This document shows positions 4,223 through 14,074 of a stretch of DNA of 64,000 nucleotides, in pieces (the first letter of the stretch is position 1; every line of letters starts with the position of its first letter). A program made the position numbers and the translations under genes. The notes under the pieces are model-generated. The model was not told where the DNA came from, did no database searches, and saw only the letters and a program-made list of their open reading frames with translations. The DNA comes from a phage. The stretch lies in sequence record PQ374922.1; one strand, 5' to 3'.

Positions 4223-4318
4223 GGCTGAAGGGCACTAAATACCACGTGCCCTTTATCTTTTAACCCCTGTCAGGAGGCTCAATCGAGCTGCAAGTCGACA
4301 AACATAAGGAACGCCATC

Positions 4319-4933
4319 ATGACGATGACAACGTTGAAGGTCATGGCCTTGTCCGTGACCTTTACCATTGCCAGCGGGAATGTGCACGCTTCCCAAAGTA
4401 CCACCCAATGTGTTTATAATTTCTCCGAGCAACAACTTAATACGATGGCAACCGCCTATCACGTGGGCAAGACACAAGATCTTGGCTACACTCTGGCCGC
4501 CATATCTTGGCGTGAGAGCCGCGCTGGCGAAGATGTAGTGTCAATGCGATACGGCCTCAAGGCGGCCAACATGGGAGCCTTTCAGAACAAGGTGAAGACA
4601 GTTGGTGATCGCGAAGGTTGTAAGAATCGCAAGTGCTATGCCAATGTCGCTATAAAGTTGCTGACCGACCAAGAATATGCCGCGCAAGCCGCCCTCGATG
4701 AGATGCAGTTCTGGCTGACCTATCACAATCAGAATATCCGCAAATCCCTCTCCTCTTACAATGCTGGCTTCGCCCGTAATCCTGCATCGAACGCTTATGC
4801 TGCCGACGTCGTGAAGAAAGCTAAATATCTTCAGAAATGTGTGTCCTTCGAAGGCCGGACCATCTCCGAGGTAGATCCTCAGGTGATCGCCATGAACAAG
4901 CACACAATAGAGAAACTGAAGAGGACAAGATAA
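4319..4933 (+). CDS. secreted lytic transglycosylase-like protein (SLT-domain motifs)
   Basis: N-terminal signal-peptide-like segment (LKVMALSVTFTIASGNVHA); SLT family-1 motifs in order: ES (ISWRESRAG), GxxQ (MGAFQN), AYNAG (SYNAGF). Confidence 0.55.
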   Translation: MTMTTLKVMALSVTFTIASGNVHASQSTTQCVYNFSEQQLNTMATAYHVGKTQDLGYTLAAISWRESRAGEDVVSMRYGLKAANMGAFQNKVKTVGDREGCKNRKCYANVAIKLLTDQEYAAQAALDEMQFWLTYHNQNIRKSLSSYNAGFARNPASNAYAADVVKKAKYLQKCVSFEGRTISEVDPQVIAMNKHTIEKLKRTR

Positions 4934-5571
4934 TGAACATCACTCCATCTCAGGCCGGATATGAACATATCTTGGTCTTCATTGCTCTACAGGGTGCGAA
5001 GGAAGGCATCATCGTATCCGAGTACTCAGGTACGGTTCGCCTTGCTGATTATGTCGCACCGGAGGCATTTATCAAGAAGTGTATTGACGCATGGTGCCTC
5101 TATGCCCTCAGCACATACCCTGCTCCTCCTGAGGGTGAGCTGTTGTTTACTGTGCCGACTCCGGCTGTTGGCGATACAGACGCGATCTTTGCCGATATGC
5201 TGGCCAAGGGGTATTTGGTGTATGACCTCACCCACGATGTCTACTCCTTTACTTCGCTGAACACCGTGTTTGGATTCACCATCACATCTGAAGCCAACAT
5301 CCCTGACTGGGGTATTTTGGCGTGGGGCGTTGACGGTCTGGGTGCAACCTACGCATCGTCTGACGTCGGTGCGGTTCTGATTGATGAGGGTGTCACCATG
5401 GAGCAGTACCTTGCCCAGTTCCCTCAGCACAATATCACAGGCAGCGACATCATTTTGGTCCAGCCTGGCGCTATCGCTCTCCCCCGTTTGGTGGATGGAT
5501 TGAAGCCTCAGCTGAAGGACATCATCGCAGGTATTCGATCCCACATTCCGGTTGTGAATCTGACGCCGTAA
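4933..5571 (+). CDS. hypothetical protein
   Basis: ATG at 4933 overlaps upstream stop (TAATG); 212 aa; followed by hairpin terminator. Confidence 0.55.
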   Translation: MNITPSQAGYEHILVFIALQGAKEGIIVSEYSGTVRLADYVAPEAFIKKCIDAWCLYALSTYPAPPEGELLFTVPTPAVGDTDAIFADMLAKGYLVYDLTHDVYSFTSLNTVFGFTITSEANIPDWGILAWGVDGLGATYASSDVGAVLIDEGVTMEQYLAQFPQHNITGSDIILVQPGAIALPRLVDGLKPQLKDIIAGIRSHIPVVNLTP

Positions 5572-5585
5572 AAATAATTCAATAA

Positions 5586-5604
5586 AAGGGGCTTTCGCCC
5601 CTTT
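5586..5604 (+). terminator. intrinsic terminator
   Basis: GGGGC-TTTC-GCCCC hairpin followed by TTT; after gene ending 5571. Confidence 0.55.
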
Positions 5605-5630
5605 ACTTCTTCAATATCCTTCCCTATACT
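5602..5630 (+). promoter_or_regulatory. sigma70-like early promoter, copy A (TTTACT-N17-TATACT)
   Basis: -35 5602..5607, -10 5625..5630; directly after terminator hairpin; shares extended similarity with copy at 18820. Confidence 0.5.
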
Positions 5631-6089: not shown

Positions 6090-9008
6090 ATGTCAAAGCT
6101 AAGTTTCCTCCAGTTCATGCAGGAAAGAGATCAGTTGGACGAAGCGTTCAACTCCGCTCCGTATGAGCTGACCATGGGCAAGAAGAACGCAGGCGATGTG
6201 TTCTTCACCTTCATCGACGAAGATGAAAAGGAATACCGTATTCAGTTCTATACCCCTCAGGGGCTGGGTAAGAGTGTTCGTCAGGTTTTCATCGGCCAGA
6301 AGCGCGGCTCCGTCTATCCTGACGCCATCGCTCGCTTCAAGAACCCAATGCGCGTTATCGCTTCCATGATCGAAGCGACCAAACAATTCATGGCGACTCC
6401 TCTGGGCAAGACCATCGATGGCTTTGCTGTCAACTTCTCTAAGAAAGCCCTGGATCGCGGTATGACCCTGATTCCTAAGATCATCCGCCAGTCCGGCCTG
6501 AAGCAGAAACTGAACGTCATGGACCTGACCTACGCGCCTGTTCCTGACCGTGGTTATGTGTGGCTAGTTCGTAAGGGTAAAGATCCGGCTCAGGTATTCG
6601 ACGGTCCGAAGATGCAGGGTATCACCTGGGATGATCCAGACAAAGTCGGTGACGTTCCGGTTCAGAACAATACTCCGGATGTGGGAGTTGGGGCTGGTTC
6701 TTCTGAAATCGAAGTCAACCGCGAGTGGTACAACAGCTCGGACACTGGTCTGGAGTTGAAGAGCGGGCGAGACCCGATTCGTGGAAATTACGTCCGTCTG
6801 ATAAGCGGTTCGAAAGAAGTAGCCACATTCTATGGTTATGATTTTGACAAATATCCAGACGGGACTGAGGTATCTTGGAATATGAAGCGCGGCTTCACCA
6901 ACCAAGACTTGGTCGGTGCGTCCATGACCAAACAGAAGAAAGGTATGTACGATCAGTACACTTTCAAGAAAGGTACTCAGATAATTCTGGTGGTGGACGT
7001 TGACACCAGCAATGACACCAGCAATGACACCAGCAATGGCAACGGATGGAAATTAACTTCAAACGGGGATCAGCCCATGTTGTTATGGGCTGGTAAGGAG
7101 AGAGGCCGCACGAACACGGCAAATATCGCTCCCCACTACAATGAGCCGGGCGTGTATGTTGGCGCATACATGAATGAGAAACCTGTGCGTGGGCAAAGTG
7201 CTGATTTCATTGCTCGTCAGTTGAAATTACCGCAAGTCCCTATCAATATCCTGAATGATTTCACCATGGCGTCTACAAAATTTTGGAAAGGTTCTCAAAA
7301 CAGTTCAGACAGAAATAACCCAGCCAACATTATCGGTTCTGGAACTGCTGTTATTGATGCCAAACGACTTGGTGCTCGAGAAGTAAACGTTGAACGATTC
7401 AAAAACGGTGTTCGCATGCGTTCTCAAAACGGTGACGTCGACATCAGTATTTCTGACCCAGACTTTTCAAATGCAGCAAGTGCGACTGATGCTGCTACTG
7501 CCTCTGTTGTGGTCAAGAACGGGCGTTACGAAGGTGCCATCAATTCAAAGCGCAAGATTGCCCGCACCTCGTACGAGCAGGGTACTGAATGGGATATCAT
7601 CGGTGTCAACGGGGAAACCCTTGTCTCTATCAAGTTGAACAAAGTGTCTAAATCCGCATCGGATTCGACCGAGGGTGCAACCAGTGTTGATCAATTACGT
7701 GACAGTGGTTTCATCGCTCGTGTTCTGGGTATCATTGATACCAACGTTGGGCTGGACACTTCTATTCTTCCTGGTGAAAACATCCGTCGCGTGGGCGCTG
7801 GTCGTTACACGACGGCAGGCGGGTTGGTTATCGTTGTCAACTTCACAAACGTCCTCGCTGGTTTCGTTCAATACTCAGTTTTCAGCGAAATTGCTGAAGA
7901 GGAGAACGTGGCCAAAGGTAGCGCCCGTGACGTCGCCAATGCGGTAATTGCGTCCATCTTTGAGGTTGCCAAGACCCAGTACACTGGGAAATGGGAAATT
8001 AGCGCAGTGCCAACAAGCGCTCCATATCCTATCAAAGCCATTCGCCGTTCTCGGGGCTGGGGTTATGTGGAAACCGCAAACTGGACTCTGACAGTGTCCG
8101 ACGCTGTCCTGAATCGTGTGAAGCCAGGGAAAACTGCCCTACTGGAACTCATCAAAGAACCTCCGCGTGGCAAGCACCCGCTGGAAATCATCCCAGAGAA
8201 GGGCGACAAGACCCTGATGCTGAAAGATCGTATTACCGGGGCCATCTATGGTTCTATCGACCTGAATGCCCAAGGCGCTGATCTGGTCAACTCTGGAACC
8301 CTGAAGATGCCACGCAACGCCATGGTGTTTGGTGAGACTGTCAACGGTATGTCCATTCGGTGGGATGTCAATTTCCCCGAAACGGGAAAATACGCCGGTG
8401 CTTCTATGATAACCAACGTGACCTATTACTACGACAAAGGTAAAGTTGCATTCACCCCAATTGTCTCTCAGAAAGGGCGTACCCTGAACAATCCGAAGAC
8501 ATATGAACTTCCTTTAAACAAAGATATGGTCCAGAGTGTGATTGATGAGATTTCATCAAAAATGGAATATCTTTCCAGAAACCTCCAACAGTTGAAAAGT
8601 CAGTCATACAACCCAAACCAGGTGTTCTTGAACGATATAACCATCACGGATAAAGGTGAAGTGATTTGGAATGATTACAACTTGTCTGACGGCAAAGTTA
8701 CACAAATTATGCTGTCCATGATAAGCGCAGAAAATAAACGTCTAGAGAAAGTGGCAAACAAGCCGGATATCAATATCACATTGCCAAAGAAACAAGCTGA
8801 AGTGATAGAATTTATAAACCGGATGATCGACATTGATCTCACCCCTTATGTGAGAACCCCCAAAAAACGTGATGTGGTATTATTTGACTCTTCTGAATTG
8901 TCGATGAACCAACTCAACAACATAGAACGCCTGGGAAGAGAAACAGGAAAATGGTCTCTTCAGTCAAACGGCGGTATGGGTCATGCACTATTTCTGAATG
9001 TTTGGTGA
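6090..9008 (+). CDS. large hypothetical protein (972 aa) with internal (DTSN)x3 repeat
   Basis: Uninterrupted 2.9-kb ORF with good SD (AGGAG) upstream; flanked by hairpins; no catalytic motif recognised; 3-prime third is AT-richer than the rest. Confidence 0.65.
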   Translation: MSKLSFLQFMQERDQLDEAFNSAPYELTMGKKNAGDVFFTFIDEDEKEYRIQFYTPQGLGKSVRQVFIGQKRGSVYPDAIARFKNPMRVIASMIEATKQFMATPLGKTIDGFAVNFSKKALDRGMTLIPKIIRQSGLKQKLNVMDLTYAPVPDRGYVWLVRKGKDPAQVFDGPKMQGITWDDPDKVGDVPVQNNTPDVGVGAGSSEIEVNREWYNSSDTGLELKSGRDPIRGNYVRLISGSKEVATFYGYDFDKYPDGTEVSWNMKRGFTNQDLVGASMTKQKKGMYDQYTFKKGTQIILVVDVDTSNDTSNDTSNGNGWKLTSNGDQPMLLWAGKERGRTNTANIAPHYNEPGVYVGAYMNEKPVRGQSADFIARQLKLPQVPINILNDFTMASTKFWKGSQNSSDRNNPANIIGSGTAVIDAKRLGAREVNVERFKNGVRMRSQNGDVDISISDPDFSNAASATDAATASVVVKNGRYEGAINSKRKIARTSYEQGTEWDIIGVNGETLVSIKLNKVSKSASDSTEGATSVDQLRDSGFIARVLGIIDTNVGLDTSILPGENIRRVGAGRYTTAGGLVIVVNFTNVLAGFVQYSVFSEIAEEENVAKGSARDVANAVIASIFEVAKTQYTGKWEISAVPTSAPYPIKAIRRSRGWGYVETANWTLTVSDAVLNRVKPGKTALLELIKEPPRGKHPLEIIPEKGDKTLMLKDRITGAIYGSIDLNAQGADLVNSGTLKMPRNAMVFGETVNGMSIRWDVNFPETGKYAGASMITNVTYYYDKGKVAFTPIVSQKGRTLNNPKTYELPLNKDMVQSVIDEISSKMEYLSRNLQQLKSQSYNPNQVFLNDITITDKGEVIWNDYNLSDGKVTQIMLSMISAENKRLEKVANKPDINITLPKKQAEVIEFINRMIDIDLTPYVRTPKKRDVVLFDSSELSMNQLNNIERLGRETGKWSLQSNGGMGHALFLNVW
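7002..7037 (+). repeat. in-frame tandem repeat (GACACCAGCAAT)x3 encoding (DTSN)x3
   Basis: Three perfect 12-nt units inside the 972-aa ORF. Confidence 0.9.
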
Positions 9009-9472: not shown

Positions 9473-9826
9473 ATGGTCAATGCGAGTATTTTCATCAACC
9501 GTGGACTGCTTGCTATAGCCCACTCTCATGCCTTACACTTCGTTACAACGTCCTATGCCAAGCACAAGGCACTCGGGGAGTTCTACGGGGATCTAGAGGA
9601 CTTGCTGGACACGTTTACCGAAGCATACATCGGTGCGGGTGGTCAGTATGTTCCATCATTCGAGAATATCAAATTGTACAACCCAGACCCTATCTCCTAT
9701 ATTAACAGTGTGGTGATAGACGTCGATGGCATCTACAAGCAGTGTGACTCCCACCTTCAGAGCACTCTTGACGATATCAAGACACTGTGCTATCAGACGA
9801 TCTACAAACTGAAGCAGCTGTCGTAA
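9473..9826 (+). CDS. hypothetical protein
   Basis: 117-aa ORF, SD GAGGA upstream; no motif assigned. Confidence 0.5.
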   Translation: MVNASIFINRGLLAIAHSHALHFVTTSYAKHKALGEFYGDLEDLLDTFTEAYIGAGGQYVPSFENIKLYNPDPISYINSVVIDVDGIYKQCDSHLQSTLDDIKTLCYQTIYKLKQLS

Positions 9827-9883: not shown

Positions 9884-10495
9884 ATGAGCAAAATCTTTAT
9901 CCCGTCACACCGCGAAGGATGTGAAATCGCGGCCAACTACCTGCGCGGTCGCATGAACTGCGGCGCTGTCTTCATCGAGCCAAATTCGTTTGACAACAAA
10001 GAATCACCTGATGCCATCGGGTTCCGTTCCGGCGGTTGCTCTATCCTGATGGAAGTGAAGGTGTCTCGCTCTGATTTCCTTACCGACAAGAAGAAGCCCC
10101 ATCGGATGGACCCCACAACAGGTATGGGCGCATACCGCTTTTATGTCTGCCCTCAGGAAGTAATCAGGGTTGAAGACCTACCACCAAAGTGGGGGTTGTT
10201 CTACTTCACACCCCGCAAGTCCCTGATGCCAGTTCATGTGCCAGACATGCAGTACTCTTCATTGTCATCACCGGAGCATTATCAGAAGTACCTTGATGAA
10301 CAGATCAAGAGAGGAAGAACCGTTACCCGGCATATGCGCAGCTACATGGAACTCCTCGACGGCTTCGCCCACTTTGAGCGCAACATGGCTGGGGAACAGA
10401 ATATCCTGTATGGGGCTTGGCGTCAACTGTGTATAGCTCAAAGTCGTGGTGTAGACTATACTGTGACCGAAGTGTTCCAGAGGCCGAAGATCTAA
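9884..10495 (+). CDS. PD-(D/E)xK nuclease-fold protein (VRR-NUC-like motif)
   Basis: Motif SPDAIGF ... ILMEVKVSRSD matches PD...(D/E)xK core; SD AAGGA 7 nt upstream of ATG 9884. Confidence 0.5.
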   Translation: MSKIFIPSHREGCEIAANYLRGRMNCGAVFIEPNSFDNKESPDAIGFRSGGCSILMEVKVSRSDFLTDKKKPHRMDPTTGMGAYRFYVCPQEVIRVEDLPPKWGLFYFTPRKSLMPVHVPDMQYSSLSSPEHYQKYLDEQIKRGRTVTRHMRSYMELLDGFAHFERNMAGEQNILYGAWRQLCIAQSRGVDYTVTEVFQRPKI

Positions 10496-11151
10496 TGAAC
10501 TATCAAAAAATTCATGACGCTATAATAACCAGAGCCAGAGATAGAATTTTAACTGGTTACAAGGAAAAACACCACGTCATCCCTCTATCTCTTGGTGGTG
10601 AAGACAGGAACTACAATAAAGTTTCTCTCACAGCATCTGAACATTATATTATTCATCTTCTGTTGGCCAAAATTCACGGCGGGGTAATGGTCAGCGCATT
10701 TAAAAAGATGCGCCACTTGACCTCTAATCCTCCAAACAATAAAGAGTTTGCCGTCAGGAGGGAATTGTTGTGTACAACAGCCGGGGAGAAAGCGAAAGAT
10801 CCACAAAAACGGAAAAGGCATTCTCTGAAAATGAAGGGTAGAAACCATACAGAATCTGCCAAATTATCAATATCCAATTCCATGACTGGGGAGAATAACC
10901 CAATGAAGGGGATACCTGCATGGAGGAACCCGACCAACATCAGCCGAGGAACTCATAAAAATTGGTTGGCGGCTGGAGAAATTTATGACTTGTACGTCAC
11001 AGGGAAATTTTTAAGAGTTATCGACCTCTTCAATGCTTGCAAATTGCCGACATCATACGGAACGGTTTCCACCATAAAAACAAAATTGGAATTGGGTTGG
11101 GAGCCAAGGAAAGACGCGGATTGGTTGCAATTCTATGAGGAACACAAATGA
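10495..11151 (+). CDS. HNH homing endonuclease
   Basis: HNH motif HHVIPLSLGG...N...LTASEH; AT-rich relative to neighbours; inserted between nuclease ORF and primase with TAATG/ATGA overlaps. Confidence 0.7.
   Translation: MNYQKIHDAIITRARDRILTGYKEKHHVIPLSLGGEDRNYNKVSLTASEHYIIHLLLAKIHGGVMVSAFKKMRHLTSNPPNNKEFAVRRELLCTTAGEKAKDPQKRKRHSLKMKGRNHTESAKLSISNSMTGENNPMKGIPAWRNPTNISRGTHKNWLAAGEIYDLYVTGKFLRVIDLFNACKLPTSYGTVSTIKTKLELGWEPRKDADWLQFYEEHK
10495..11151 (+). mobile_element. free-standing homing endonuclease gene (HEG)
   Basis: Intergenic HNH ORF with lower GC than flanking replication genes. Confidence 0.5.
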
Positions 11152-12206
11152 AATTTCTCGACGAACAATTCATAAATTACGTTGCTCCCAGACTCGATAA
11201 ATTCAAGTGGGAACGCGTTGGGTCTGTCGCAAATTTTAGATGCCCGCTTTGTGGAGATTCTCTCAAAAGTGCTAATAAACGACGCGGTTATTTTTTCTTC
11301 GATCGAGATAATGACTGCTTTCGGTTTAAATGTCATAATTGCCATAACATGAATGGCTGGTCATTTGAGTTCTGGCTGAAGAAGTTCGACGAACGCCTCT
11401 CAACAGAGTACAACATGGAGAAGTTCCGTCTGCTGGGTGATACGTCGGGCAGACCACTTCCTTCCCTGAAGCCGCTGCCAAAGCTGACACAGACCGCCCG
11501 TATTGGCTCAGTGGCGGCGAAACGCGACGAGAGCCTCCTCGGCAATATGCTACGGCTTGATCTGCTACCGCCTGACCATAAGGCTCGACAGTACGTACAG
11601 TGGCGTGGACTGCCGGAGAGCACTTTGTCCCTCCTGTATTACACACAACACTTCCGCCAGGATCTACTCCAGTTCGAAACGAACCCTGAGAAGCAACTGA
11701 AAATTCCCGATGACGAGCGCCTGGTAATCCCATTCTGGACGCAAGATGGGCGGATGAAGATCGTTCAGGGGCGTGCATTCGACAAGAATGCGACACTGCG
11801 CTACGCAACAGTCAAGCCCAAGGATGAAGACACTAAGGTGTATGGTGAAGACCGGGTAAACATTCACAAGACCAAGCTGGTTGTGGAAGGTCCGATTGAC
11901 AGCCTGTTCCTACCCAACTGTCTTGCATCGGCCGACGCTGATCTACTGAGCGTGAAGGGTGACATTTATATCCCTGATAATCAGTACCGGAACCCGCAGG
12001 TGTGTGACGGTATTCAGAAGATGATAGATAAAGGTGTCAAGGTTGTACTGTTCCCACCAGACGTTCCTTGGAAGGATATCAACGACATGGTCATGCCATC
12101 AAAGGGCAACATGTCCATACAAGACCTCCTGAAGCTGATCGCCAAGAACGTTTACCAAGGTATGGCCGCATCATTACAATTCGCTGAACTGAGGAAAGTG
12201 CGATGA
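11148..12206 (+). CDS. 61: DNA primase (T4 gp61 family)
   Basis: N-terminal zinc finger CPLCGDS...CHNCH and TOPRIM-like LVVEGPIDSLF, matching remembered T4 gp61 (CPVCGDS, VLEGPIDSLF). Confidence 0.9.
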   Translation: MKFLDEQFINYVAPRLDKFKWERVGSVANFRCPLCGDSLKSANKRRGYFFFDRDNDCFRFKCHNCHNMNGWSFEFWLKKFDERLSTEYNMEKFRLLGDTSGRPLPSLKPLPKLTQTARIGSVAAKRDESLLGNMLRLDLLPPDHKARQYVQWRGLPESTLSLLYYTQHFRQDLLQFETNPEKQLKIPDDERLVIPFWTQDGRMKIVQGRAFDKNATLRYATVKPKDEDTKVYGEDRVNIHKTKLVVEGPIDSLFLPNCLASADADLLSVKGDIYIPDNQYRNPQVCDGIQKMIDKGVKVVLFPPDVPWKDINDMVMPSKGNMSIQDLLKLIAKNVYQGMAASLQFAELRKVR

Positions 12207-13279: not shown

Positions 13280-14074
13280 ATGGCCATTCTAAAACTTGGC
13301 AACCGTGGCACTGAAGTGAAGGCACTTCAGGATAGCCTCAACAAAATCGGCTTCACCCTCGTCGCTGATGGTATCTTTGGCAAGGCAACAGAGAACGCCG
13401 TCAAGACTGTTCAGGCGGGTGCGGGGCTTGTCATTGATGGTATCGTGGGTCCAAAGACCTCCTATGCTATTCGCAACGCCGGAGACGCCCATCAGGATCA
13501 TCTAACTGAGTCAGACCTGATTGATGCTGCTAACGATCTGGGTGTTGACCTTGCCTCTGTCAAGGCGGTGAATCAGGTTGAGTCGCGCGGCACGGGCTTC
13601 ACCAAGTCAGGTAAGATCAAGACATTATTTGAGCGCCACATCATGTATAAGAAGCTGATGGCGAAGTTCGGACAGGCTCGGGCGAATGCCATGGGGCATA
13701 TGTACCCGACGTTGGTCAGTCCTTCCGCAGGCGGGTACACGGGAGGCGACGCGGAGTTGGATCGACTTCATGCGGCCATCAACATCGATGAGGATTGTGC
13801 GTACGAGAGCGCCTCTTACGGTCTCTTCCAGATCATGGGATTCAACTGCCAGGTCTGTGGATATGCCAACGCCAAGGAGATGTTCAACGACTTCCTGACA
13901 GGAGAACGTGCTCATTTGATGGCATTCGTGAAGTTCATCAAGGCTGACGCCAAGCTCTGGCAGGCTCTGAAGGACAAGAACTGGGCTGAGTTTGCGCGGC
14001 GCTATAATGGTCCGGCGTATGCCAAGAACCAGTACGACACGAAGCTCGTAGCAGCATACAAGAGTTTCAGTTAA
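13280..14074 (+). CDS. endolysin (peptidoglycan-binding domain plus muramidase-like catalytic domain)
   Basis: N-terminal PG_binding_1-like repeat (LQDSLNKIGF...DGIFGKATENAVKTVQ...DGIVGPKT); C-terminal domain resembling phage N-acetylmuramidase endolysins; ATG 13280 with GGAGG SD. Confidence 0.7.
   Translation: MAILKLGNRGTEVKALQDSLNKIGFTLVADGIFGKATENAVKTVQAGAGLVIDGIVGPKTSYAIRNAGDAHQDHLTESDLIDAANDLGVDLASVKAVNQVESRGTGFTKSGKIKTLFERHIMYKKLMAKFGQARANAMGHMYPTLVSPSAGGYTGGDAELDRLHAAINIDEDCAYESASYGLFQIMGFNCQVCGYANAKEMFNDFLTGERAHLMAFVKFIKADAKLWQALKDKNWAEFARRYNGPAYAKNQYDTKLVAAYKSFS

Follow-up and report, generated by a model that had tools for sequence, protein, structure and literature searches.

The closest described relative of the gene studied here is vs.1 of phage T4. 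The gene, hereafter the 4319 gene, lies at positions 4319-4933 of a 64,000-nucleotide (nt) stretch of phage DNA (sequence record PQ374922.1; the whole stretch is called the window). A preliminary description had taken its product for a signal-peptide-bearing lytic transglycosylase, encoded in the early region far from the endolysin, an arrangement that it called unusual. A marginal but consistent match of vs.1 orthologues to SLT was published in 2006, and "some role in cell lysis" was then proposed (PMC1524935). T4 vs.1 is classed as early RNA and middle protein (PMC9697503 supplement). It scored 'Semi-Fit' in CRISPRi-ART, where it stands with genes of purely unknown function (PMC11879866 supplement), and HIDEN-SEQ, a screen of the transposon type, hit 46 of its 52 sites and found it non-essential (bioRxiv 2025.11.20.689424 supplement). 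These data suggest that its fitness effect is mild at most. Our literature search found no paper assigning T4 Vs.1 a function.

Three further systems bear comparison. The first is E. coli Slt70 (PF01464, GH23), whose superhelical U and L domains have no counterpart in the 4319 protein; the latter is phage-encoded and has one domain only, some 150 residues long. EtgA, from the type III secretion system of enteropathogenic E. coli, represents the transglycosylases of specialised secretion systems, which are small GH23 enzymes of one domain, exported by Sec, whose task is to make local openings in murein. Its sequence match to the 4319 protein is not significant, and the 4319 gene is located outside a secretion-system locus. 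Finally, Tgl of the Kayvirus phages of Staphylococcus is reported (PMC7150955) to be a Sec-secreted transglycosylase-like enzyme whose activity was shown experimentally and which was proposed as an additional endolysin. It has a signal peptide and is secreted by the host machinery, as is predicted for the 4319 protein; its gene, too, stands apart from that of the main endolysin, at a distance of a few genes, and is transcribed like an early gene. Tgl differs in that its host is Gram-positive, in being related to IsaA and SceD, and in having an experimental activity where that of the 4319 protein is predicted.

The 4319 gene is, as judged by sequence comparison, the Ackermannviridae orthologue of T4 vs.1. 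The window comes from an Ackermannviridae phage, its segment around the gene sharing 99% identity with Escherichia phage YX22 and 96-98% with A221, PC3, PH4 and AV101; near-identical genes are already present in GenBank genomes. The features of the gene are as follows.

4319-4933, plus strand: predicted transglycosylase open reading frame (ORF), ATG start, 204 amino acids, stop TAA at 4931-4933
4306-4311, plus strand: ribosome-binding site AAGGAA, 8 nt 5' of the transglycosylase ATG
4319-4390, plus strand: predicted Sec signal peptide, residues 1-24, with n/h/c layout and a VHA/SQ site (the slash marks the predicted cut)
4391-4933, plus strand: mature GH23 / SLT family-1 domain with C-terminal extension, assigned from Pfam, PHROGs, model and motifs
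4514-4516, plus strand: codon of the catalytic Glu66, predicted by motif
4574-4585, plus strand: motif G86-A-F-Q89
4754-4768, plus strand: motif S146-Y-N-A-G150

BLASTP aligned the 4319 protein with T4 Vs.1 (AAD42672, UniProt P13311) at 32% identity (E 2e-18). In PHROGs, residues 6-179 matched positions 3-176 of the 178 of phrog_600 ('unknown function'; E 1e-59), to which T4 vs.1 itself is assigned, and the structural matches in BFVD include vs.1 of Aeromonas phage 25. The homology covers the whole domain. The two proteins share a similar size, an N-terminal signal-like segment and the ES / G-x-x-Q / SYN-x-G / Y motifs, and both are encoded amid non-structural genes at a distance from the endolysin. 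They also differ. T4 Vs.1 is devoid of the four conserved cysteines and of the 30-residue basic C-terminal extension of the Ackermannviridae protein; its gene is coupled to vs, whereas the Ackermannviridae gene is coupled to the gene of a virion protein; and expression and fitness data exist for T4 Vs.1, while the Ackermannviridae protein is known from mass spectrometry of a virion preparation of a relative.

Matches to the 4319 protein were found by tblastn in 2,095 phage records, T4 among them (vs.1, adjoining regB). When 1.84 billion cluster representatives were searched with a profile, 811 clusters (50% identity) matched at a cut-off of E <= 1e-3, and 554 at one of E <= 1e-10; lengths of 160-200 residues prevail. 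The names of the cluster members were uninformative, as most are unnamed metagenomic sequences. The protein had already been annotated as Vs.1-like in Shigella phage AG3 and CBA120, and as a lytic transglycosylase in Menlow. The word "unusual" in the preliminary description does not hold, given this wide distribution, the SLT match published in 2006, the Kayvirus Tgl precedent and the scattered lysis genes described below. The observation is correct but not novel, since the Vs.1 family, its SLT resemblance and its distance from the endolysin are already documented. As first stated the finding matters little; its interest is that the Vs.1 family, both large and well conserved, appears to consist of exported phage enzymes acting on the wall, whose role has been unsolved for more than 20 years, a question that the mild fitness contribution suggested by the T4 genome-wide screens makes tractable.

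To follow residue conservation we aligned 153 family sequences (151 cluster representatives, the window protein and T4 Vs.1). Glu66 is invariant (153/153) and is followed in all 153 by Ser or Thr; G86 is found in 146, and Y147, G150 and Y160 in 152 each, while position 89 is Q or H. In the 4319 protein the family-1 motifs appear in the order R-E66-S67, G86-A-F-Q89, S146-Y-N-A-G150 and Y160. The three SLT motifs announced beforehand are thus in the right order, and ES and GxxQ read as described; the third is SYNAG and not AYNAG. The Pfam SLT profile PF01464 aligned over positions 15-109 of 117 (E 4.1e-4). The AlphaFold2 model, built with 19 homologues, reached a mean predicted local distance difference test (pLDDT) score of 86.4 and a predicted template-modelling (pTM) score of 0.80, and displays a goose-lysozyme-like alpha-helical catalytic fold preceded by an unstructured segment (residues 1-28, pLDDT <50). 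The closest structural matches are 13-18% identical to the 4319 protein, and Foldseek pointed weakly to the same proteins. When the family profile was compared with PDB sequences, EtgA was the best match (E 0.077, not significant), with E66-S67 placed on 'AWNES' and SYNAG on 'AYNAG'; the 4319 protein alone gave no match in the PDB sequence search, and none in NCBIfam. Taken together, the modelled fold and the conserved motifs support the prediction of an SLT-fold, apparently catalytically competent murein-cleaving enzyme.

Two features set the Ackermannviridae clade apart. Cys31, Cys101, Cys106 and Cys174 are conserved only within it, and the C-terminal extension (residues ~175-204, 4841-4930), absent from T4 Vs.1, is specific to it. 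The extension is modelled as two short helices (pLDDT ~87-92), ends in the basic KLKRTR, and might bind a partner or the envelope.

The N-terminus of the 4319 product reads MTMTTLKVMALSVTFTIASGNVHA/SQSTTQC. It bears out the signal-like segment of the preliminary description, with an n-region, MTMTTLK, carrying a single positive charge (K7), an h-region, VMALSVTFTIASG, of 13 uncharged hydrophobic or small residues (V8-G20) followed by polar N21 and H23, and a c-region, VHA/SQ, that obeys the -3/-1 rule and contains no lipobox. These features were judged by inspection and with a crude script heuristic. Of the 88 ORFs of the window, 9 satisfy the heuristic as well, a background of ~10% that makes it weak taken alone; it passes 131 of 145 full-length family representatives (~90%), and the N-terminus of T4 Vs.1, MRKALLAGLLAISMMAHS/SE, is likewise signal-like. 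Together with the conserved catalytic residues, the excess of family members over window ORFs points to a large set of exported, apparently active enzymes. For the 4319 protein, export and the cleavage site are predicted on this footing. Two other kinds of N-terminus were considered and rejected: a lipoprotein, as the lipobox is absent, and a signal-anchor-release (SAR) anchor, as the core has 13 residues against the ~18-22 needed and is followed by the VHA/S site.

We therefore favor, at a probability of roughly 60%, the view that the 4319 protein is a Sec-exported, catalytically competent lytic transglycosylase of GH23 / SLT family 1, orthologous to T4 Vs.1, with an accessory and non-essential role. 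Residues 1-24 would route the protein through SecYEG, signal peptidase I would cut at VHA/SQ after Ala24, and the mature enzyme, of ~20 kDa and basic (isoelectric point, pI, 9.4), would fold in the periplasm. There the four clade-conserved cysteines probably form two disulfides, and their conservation only in the Ackermannviridae clade fits an oxidising compartment. Glu66 would act as single acid/base catalyst in the non-hydrolytic cleavage of the bond between N-acetylmuramic acid (MurNAc) and N-acetylglucosamine (GlcNAc), leaving 1,6-anhydroMurNAc ends. Being exported to the periplasm, such an enzyme would reach murein without a holin. As infected cells do not lyse early and T4 vs.1 is dispensable, its activity would have to be limited or restrained; for E. 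coli, robust regulation that counters elevated lytic transglycosylase activity has been reported (PMC10139938). The most likely role would be accessory, the enzyme loosening or turning over the sacculus so that holin-dependent lysis by the muramidase is faster or more complete. Alternatively, the accessory role could be to let the wall keep pace with the swelling infected cell.

Several points weigh against this view. T4 endolysin (e) mutants fail to lyse, indicating that Vs.1 alone cannot lyse cells and that any lysis role is minor. The PF01464 score, 20.3 bits, narrowly misses the gathering cut-off of 21.3, and Foldseek matches of the model to the PDB are weak (E >= 0.017 at best). The h-region is rich in Ser/Thr and only moderately hydrophobic (Kyte-Doolittle value 2.1), and the signal was called by inspection and the crude script. 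For every family member, enzymatic activity and localisation are deduced from features such as these. An orthologue was found in virions of phage Sajous1 purified on caesium chloride (CsCl), which would be unexpected for a purely periplasmic protein unless it co-purifies, and the 4319 gene is coupled to a virion-protein gene; both facts are treated below.

Another explanation is that the 4319 protein is an exported endolysin proper, held in the periplasm and restrained until the holin collapses the membrane potential, as for the Sec-exported Lys44 of phage fOg44 and the SAR endolysins, and acting as the main or a co-equal lysis enzyme. A predicted export signal joined to a predicted murein-cleaving fold would suit such a protein; Kayvirus Tgl (PMC7150955) offers a precedent in which nisin mimics holin action, and a late-like TAAATA precedes both the 4319 gene and the endolysin gene. 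The window, however, encodes a complete cytoplasmic muramidase endolysin:

13280-14074, plus strand: endolysin (PG_binding_1 and PF11860 muramidase), canonical cytoplasmic type, without signal sequence

Moreover, T4 vs.1 is non-essential, no holin is adjacent to the 4319 gene, and a SAR membrane anchor would need an h-region longer than 13 residues. We consider a main or co-equal endolysin unlikely. The endolysin gene lies 8.3 kb 3' of the transglycosylase gene on the same strand, so the statement that the two are encoded apart stands. The endolysin gene is itself isolated, flanked by primase-side genes and by phoH/nrdAB; no holin or spanin was detected next to it, and TAAATA stands 36 nt 5' of its ATG. 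As it sits among replication and nucleotide genes, scattered lysis genes seem normal in this lineage. According to the 2011 paper on CBA120, no lysin had been identified.

The protein could instead act on the virion. The gene that follows the 4319 gene bears on this alternative, and the two form a unit bounded by hairpins.

4228-4261, plus strand: terminator-like hairpin and T-rich tail after the upstream gene, from sequence and RNA fold
4262-4318, plus strand: 5' leader of 57 nt, near-invariant across four genera
4933-5571, plus strand: DUF7270 gene, 212 amino acids (Pfam DUF7270, E 2.8e-108, matched from residue 33 of the long ORF onward)
5581-5607, no strand assigned: hairpin AAAGGGGC-TTTC-GCCCCTTT closing the two-gene unit, from a hairpin scan
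5602-5630: sigma-70-like TTTACT-N17-TATACT, after the 5581 hairpin

The transglycosylase stop and the DUF7270 ATG share one base (TAATG, 4931-4935). Annotations of every other Ackermannviridae locus checked show this 1-nt overlap as well, a set counted as eight and listed under nine names: LHE287 (no genus assigned), Menlow and IME250 (Taipeivirus), XF4 and LIMEstone1 (Limestonevirus), phiEa2809 (Nezavisimistyvirus), 3M (Miltonvirus), and CBA120 and Sajous1 (Kuttervirus). The overlap suggests that the two genes are translationally coupled. By analogy with EtgA, this coupling might hint at a partner comparable to EscI, and we know of no EscI-like partner of the 4319 protein; DUF7270 had no match in the PDB sequence search. 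A longer form of DUF7270, starting at ATG 4837 and overlapping the last 32 transglycosylase codons, was rejected: in Taipeivirus, Miltonvirus and Nezavisimistyvirus the added stretch is closed or lacks a start codon, which places the DUF7270 start at 4933 and leaves no dual coding. In the wider Vs.1 family we found no conserved partner, the neighbours differing between T4 and two other family loci (L009 and L010).

Upstream, the unit opens with a block of ~160 nt (~4246-4408) that is nearly invariant and comprises the 3' arm of the hairpin, the leader and the codons up to ~30. We aligned it between the window, CBA120, Menlow, IME250 and LIMEstone1. Compared with CBA120, 25 of codons 1-27 specify the same residue, and all 25 are free of synonymous changes, which affect 71 of the 144 such codons farther along the gene (Fisher p 2.7e-7); compared with Menlow, the counts are 1/23 in the same 5' codons and 72/148 in the rest. 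The constraint ends sharply at about codon 30, and the DUF7270 gene shows nothing comparable. Such a pattern points to a nucleic-acid-level constraint on the expression of the 4319 gene. The leader contains AGGAGG (4271-4276) without a following start codon, and a small GCTC-NNNC-GAGC hairpin. An Rfam search with the leader returned no match, its fold is not unusually stable (z-score -0.32), and no repeat of it was found elsewhere in the window. A repeated promoter was dismissed, as the leader is unique in the window and present in one copy per viral contig (~150-160 kb); antisense ORFs (4279-4404 and 4253-4477) were also dismissed as the cause, as leader indels shift their frame and their start is not conserved. 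The invariant block and the coupling to a virion-protein gene are concrete, testable leads on gene control in Ackermannviridae.

The two published proteomes of relatives give different pictures of the pair. In LIMEstone1, the DUF7270 orthologue, ORF085 (22.75 kDa), was identified by mass spectrometry as a virion protein, as were the products of several genes just 3' of it (PMC3296691). In Sajous1, 31 spectra of gp211 were obtained from CsCl-purified virions, along with non-structural proteins such as ParB (11 spectra), endolysin (6) and SSB (5) (PMC10892097). The Sajous1 GenBank record (MW021757 149831-150448; 6832-7449 of our locus L034) identifies gp211 as the transglycosylase orthologue and gp212 as DUF7270. 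Sajous1 lists gp211 and not gp212, and LIMEstone1 lists DUF7270 and not the transglycosylase. The Sajous1 spectra show that the transglycosylase protein is made, and made in quantity.

On these data, the protein or a non-exported fraction of it could sit on the particle, perhaps through DUF7270, and cut glycan at the next infection. The gp211 count exceeds that of any other non-structural protein, including obvious contaminants such as ParB, endolysin and SSB, the TAATG overlap with a gene whose product is a virion protein by mass spectrometry is strict, genes after DUF7270 also encode virion proteins, and the gp5 hub of CBA120 reportedly has an NlpC/P60-type domain and not a lysozyme (PMC3184105). 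Yet the transglycosylase is missing from the 39 LIMEstone1 virion proteins although DUF7270 is among them, a Sec signal would take the protein out of the cytoplasm, where virions are assembled, and outside Ackermannviridae the family has no structural-gene context. The Sajous1 authors caution about contamination, and a basic (pI 9.4), abundant periplasmic protein freed at lysis could stick to particles or to co-banding wall or outer-membrane debris. A virion-associated entry enzyme is thus rather unlikely. We regard as quite improbable the more elaborate proposal that transglycosylase and DUF7270 form a functional pair, in which part of the enzyme, from a non-exported pool or by binding after lysis, would be on the particle and provide glycan cutting at entry, the invariant block being a cis-regulatory RNA or DNA element that sets the amount made or exported. 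If true, these phages, with their reportedly peptidase-type hub, would gain a means of cutting glycan on entry.

A role in superinfection or competition was also weighed, in which the periplasmic enzyme would alter the wall or periplasm so as to hinder or sense secondary phages, or would aid lysis inhibition. T4 RI, Imm and Sp, which are early periplasmic proteins, act on superinfection. CBA120 displays T4-like lysis inhibition, the turbidity still rising (PMC3184105), and both lineages with lysis inhibition carry the Vs.1 family. Against this, FelixO1-like phages and many others carry the family as well, murein cutting is expected to ease entry and not to block it, and direct evidence is absent; such a role seems very improbable.

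An identity as a RegB-type endoribonuclease, favored only by the annotation of many records, has practically no chance of being correct and is refuted by sequence comparison, as BLASTP against T4 RegB gave E 0.25 over 21 residues, which is noise, Pfam and PHROG scans show no RegB family, and the true match is T4 vs.1, the neighbour of regB. Many Ackermannviridae GenBank records name the 4319 gene 'RegB', 'endoribonuclease' or 'RNA endonuclease'. In T4, vs.1 lies 8 nt from regB and tblastn matches span both features, which is probably how the label spread. A practical use of the present analysis is to correct this widespread misannotation.

As for the timing of expression, the placement of the gene in an "early region" could not be established. 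A terminator-like hairpin lies 5' of it, it overlaps a virion-protein gene, another hairpin lies 3' of the pair, and the annotators of LIMEstone1 placed a putative late promoter 5' of the transglycosylase/DUF7270 pair. In the 8-bp stem of the upstream hairpin, AAGGGCAC (4228-4235) pairs with GTGCCCTT (4246-4253); the 10-nt loop, TAAATACCAC, contains a T4-late-like TAAATA (4236-4241), and the tail is TATCTTTT. Our automatic scan missed this hairpin because its loop exceeds 8 nt. A terminator is annotated at the equivalent site in the Menlow record, and the stem is kept in Taipeivirus through an A-U to G-U change. At the site equivalent to the 5581 hairpin, LIMEstone1 carries an annotated terminator and middle promoter. 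Pointing toward early timing are the early RNA of T4 vs.1 and the situation in Miltonvirus and Nezavisimistyvirus, where the gene directly abuts the DUF4326 gene of the gp46/DUF4326 cluster with no hairpin between. In other family loci, vs.1 of T4 stands among early accessory genes, and the L009 and L010 copies among nucleotide-metabolism genes.

Two -10-like hexamers, TAAATA and TATAAT, are each ~3-fold enriched in the intergenic DNA of the window (9 and 10 copies against 3.1 expected from shuffles). The intergenic TAAATA sites include 4236, 9436, 13244, 24147 and 27918, the first three standing ahead of the 4319, 9473 and endolysin genes. Intergenic TATAAT sites include 15065, 25827, 30834, 37597, 40596 and 42471. 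Many copies of either motif sit within the loop or stem of a hairpin, for instance GGGGTATAATTACCCC and CCCCCTAAATACAGGGGG, suggesting combined terminator and promoter signals. The T4 late consensus TATAAATA occurs once in the 64 kb, and not near the 4319 gene; according to the CBA120 paper, the late promoter of these phages was unidentified.

The genes 5' of the 4319 gene encode RNase H, gp55, gp47, gp46, a small membrane protein, DUF4326 (NrdA.1) and a 94-residue ORF. On the 3' side, DUF7270 is followed by a small ORF, a 972-residue protein and more small ORFs, and farther on by a homing endonuclease, primase, the endolysin, PhoH and NrdAB. Toward its C-terminus, the 972-residue protein (6090-9008; phrog_3867) is similar over a stretch to an internal head protein (phrog_7673, E 9e-11). 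In LIMEstone1 several smaller ORFs occupy the equivalent region, among them ORF081 and ORF082, both virion-confirmed; in Sajous1 the orthologue, gp214, is abundant (196 spectra) and bears the name 'tail completion protein'. The homing-endonuclease ORF (10417-11151; phrog_655, E 1e-54) lies directly 5' of the DNA primase gene (11148-12206) and overlaps it. Finally, a 117-residue ORF at 9473-9826, for which LHE287 uses the name 'MobD.6 protein', has a match in phrog_858 ('starvation-inducible transcriptional regulator'). The MobD.6-named product of T4 is rI.-1, which adjoins the lysis-inhibition gene rI, and the orthologues of the 9473 product, LIMEstone1 ORF078 and Sajous1 gp217, were found in virion preparations.

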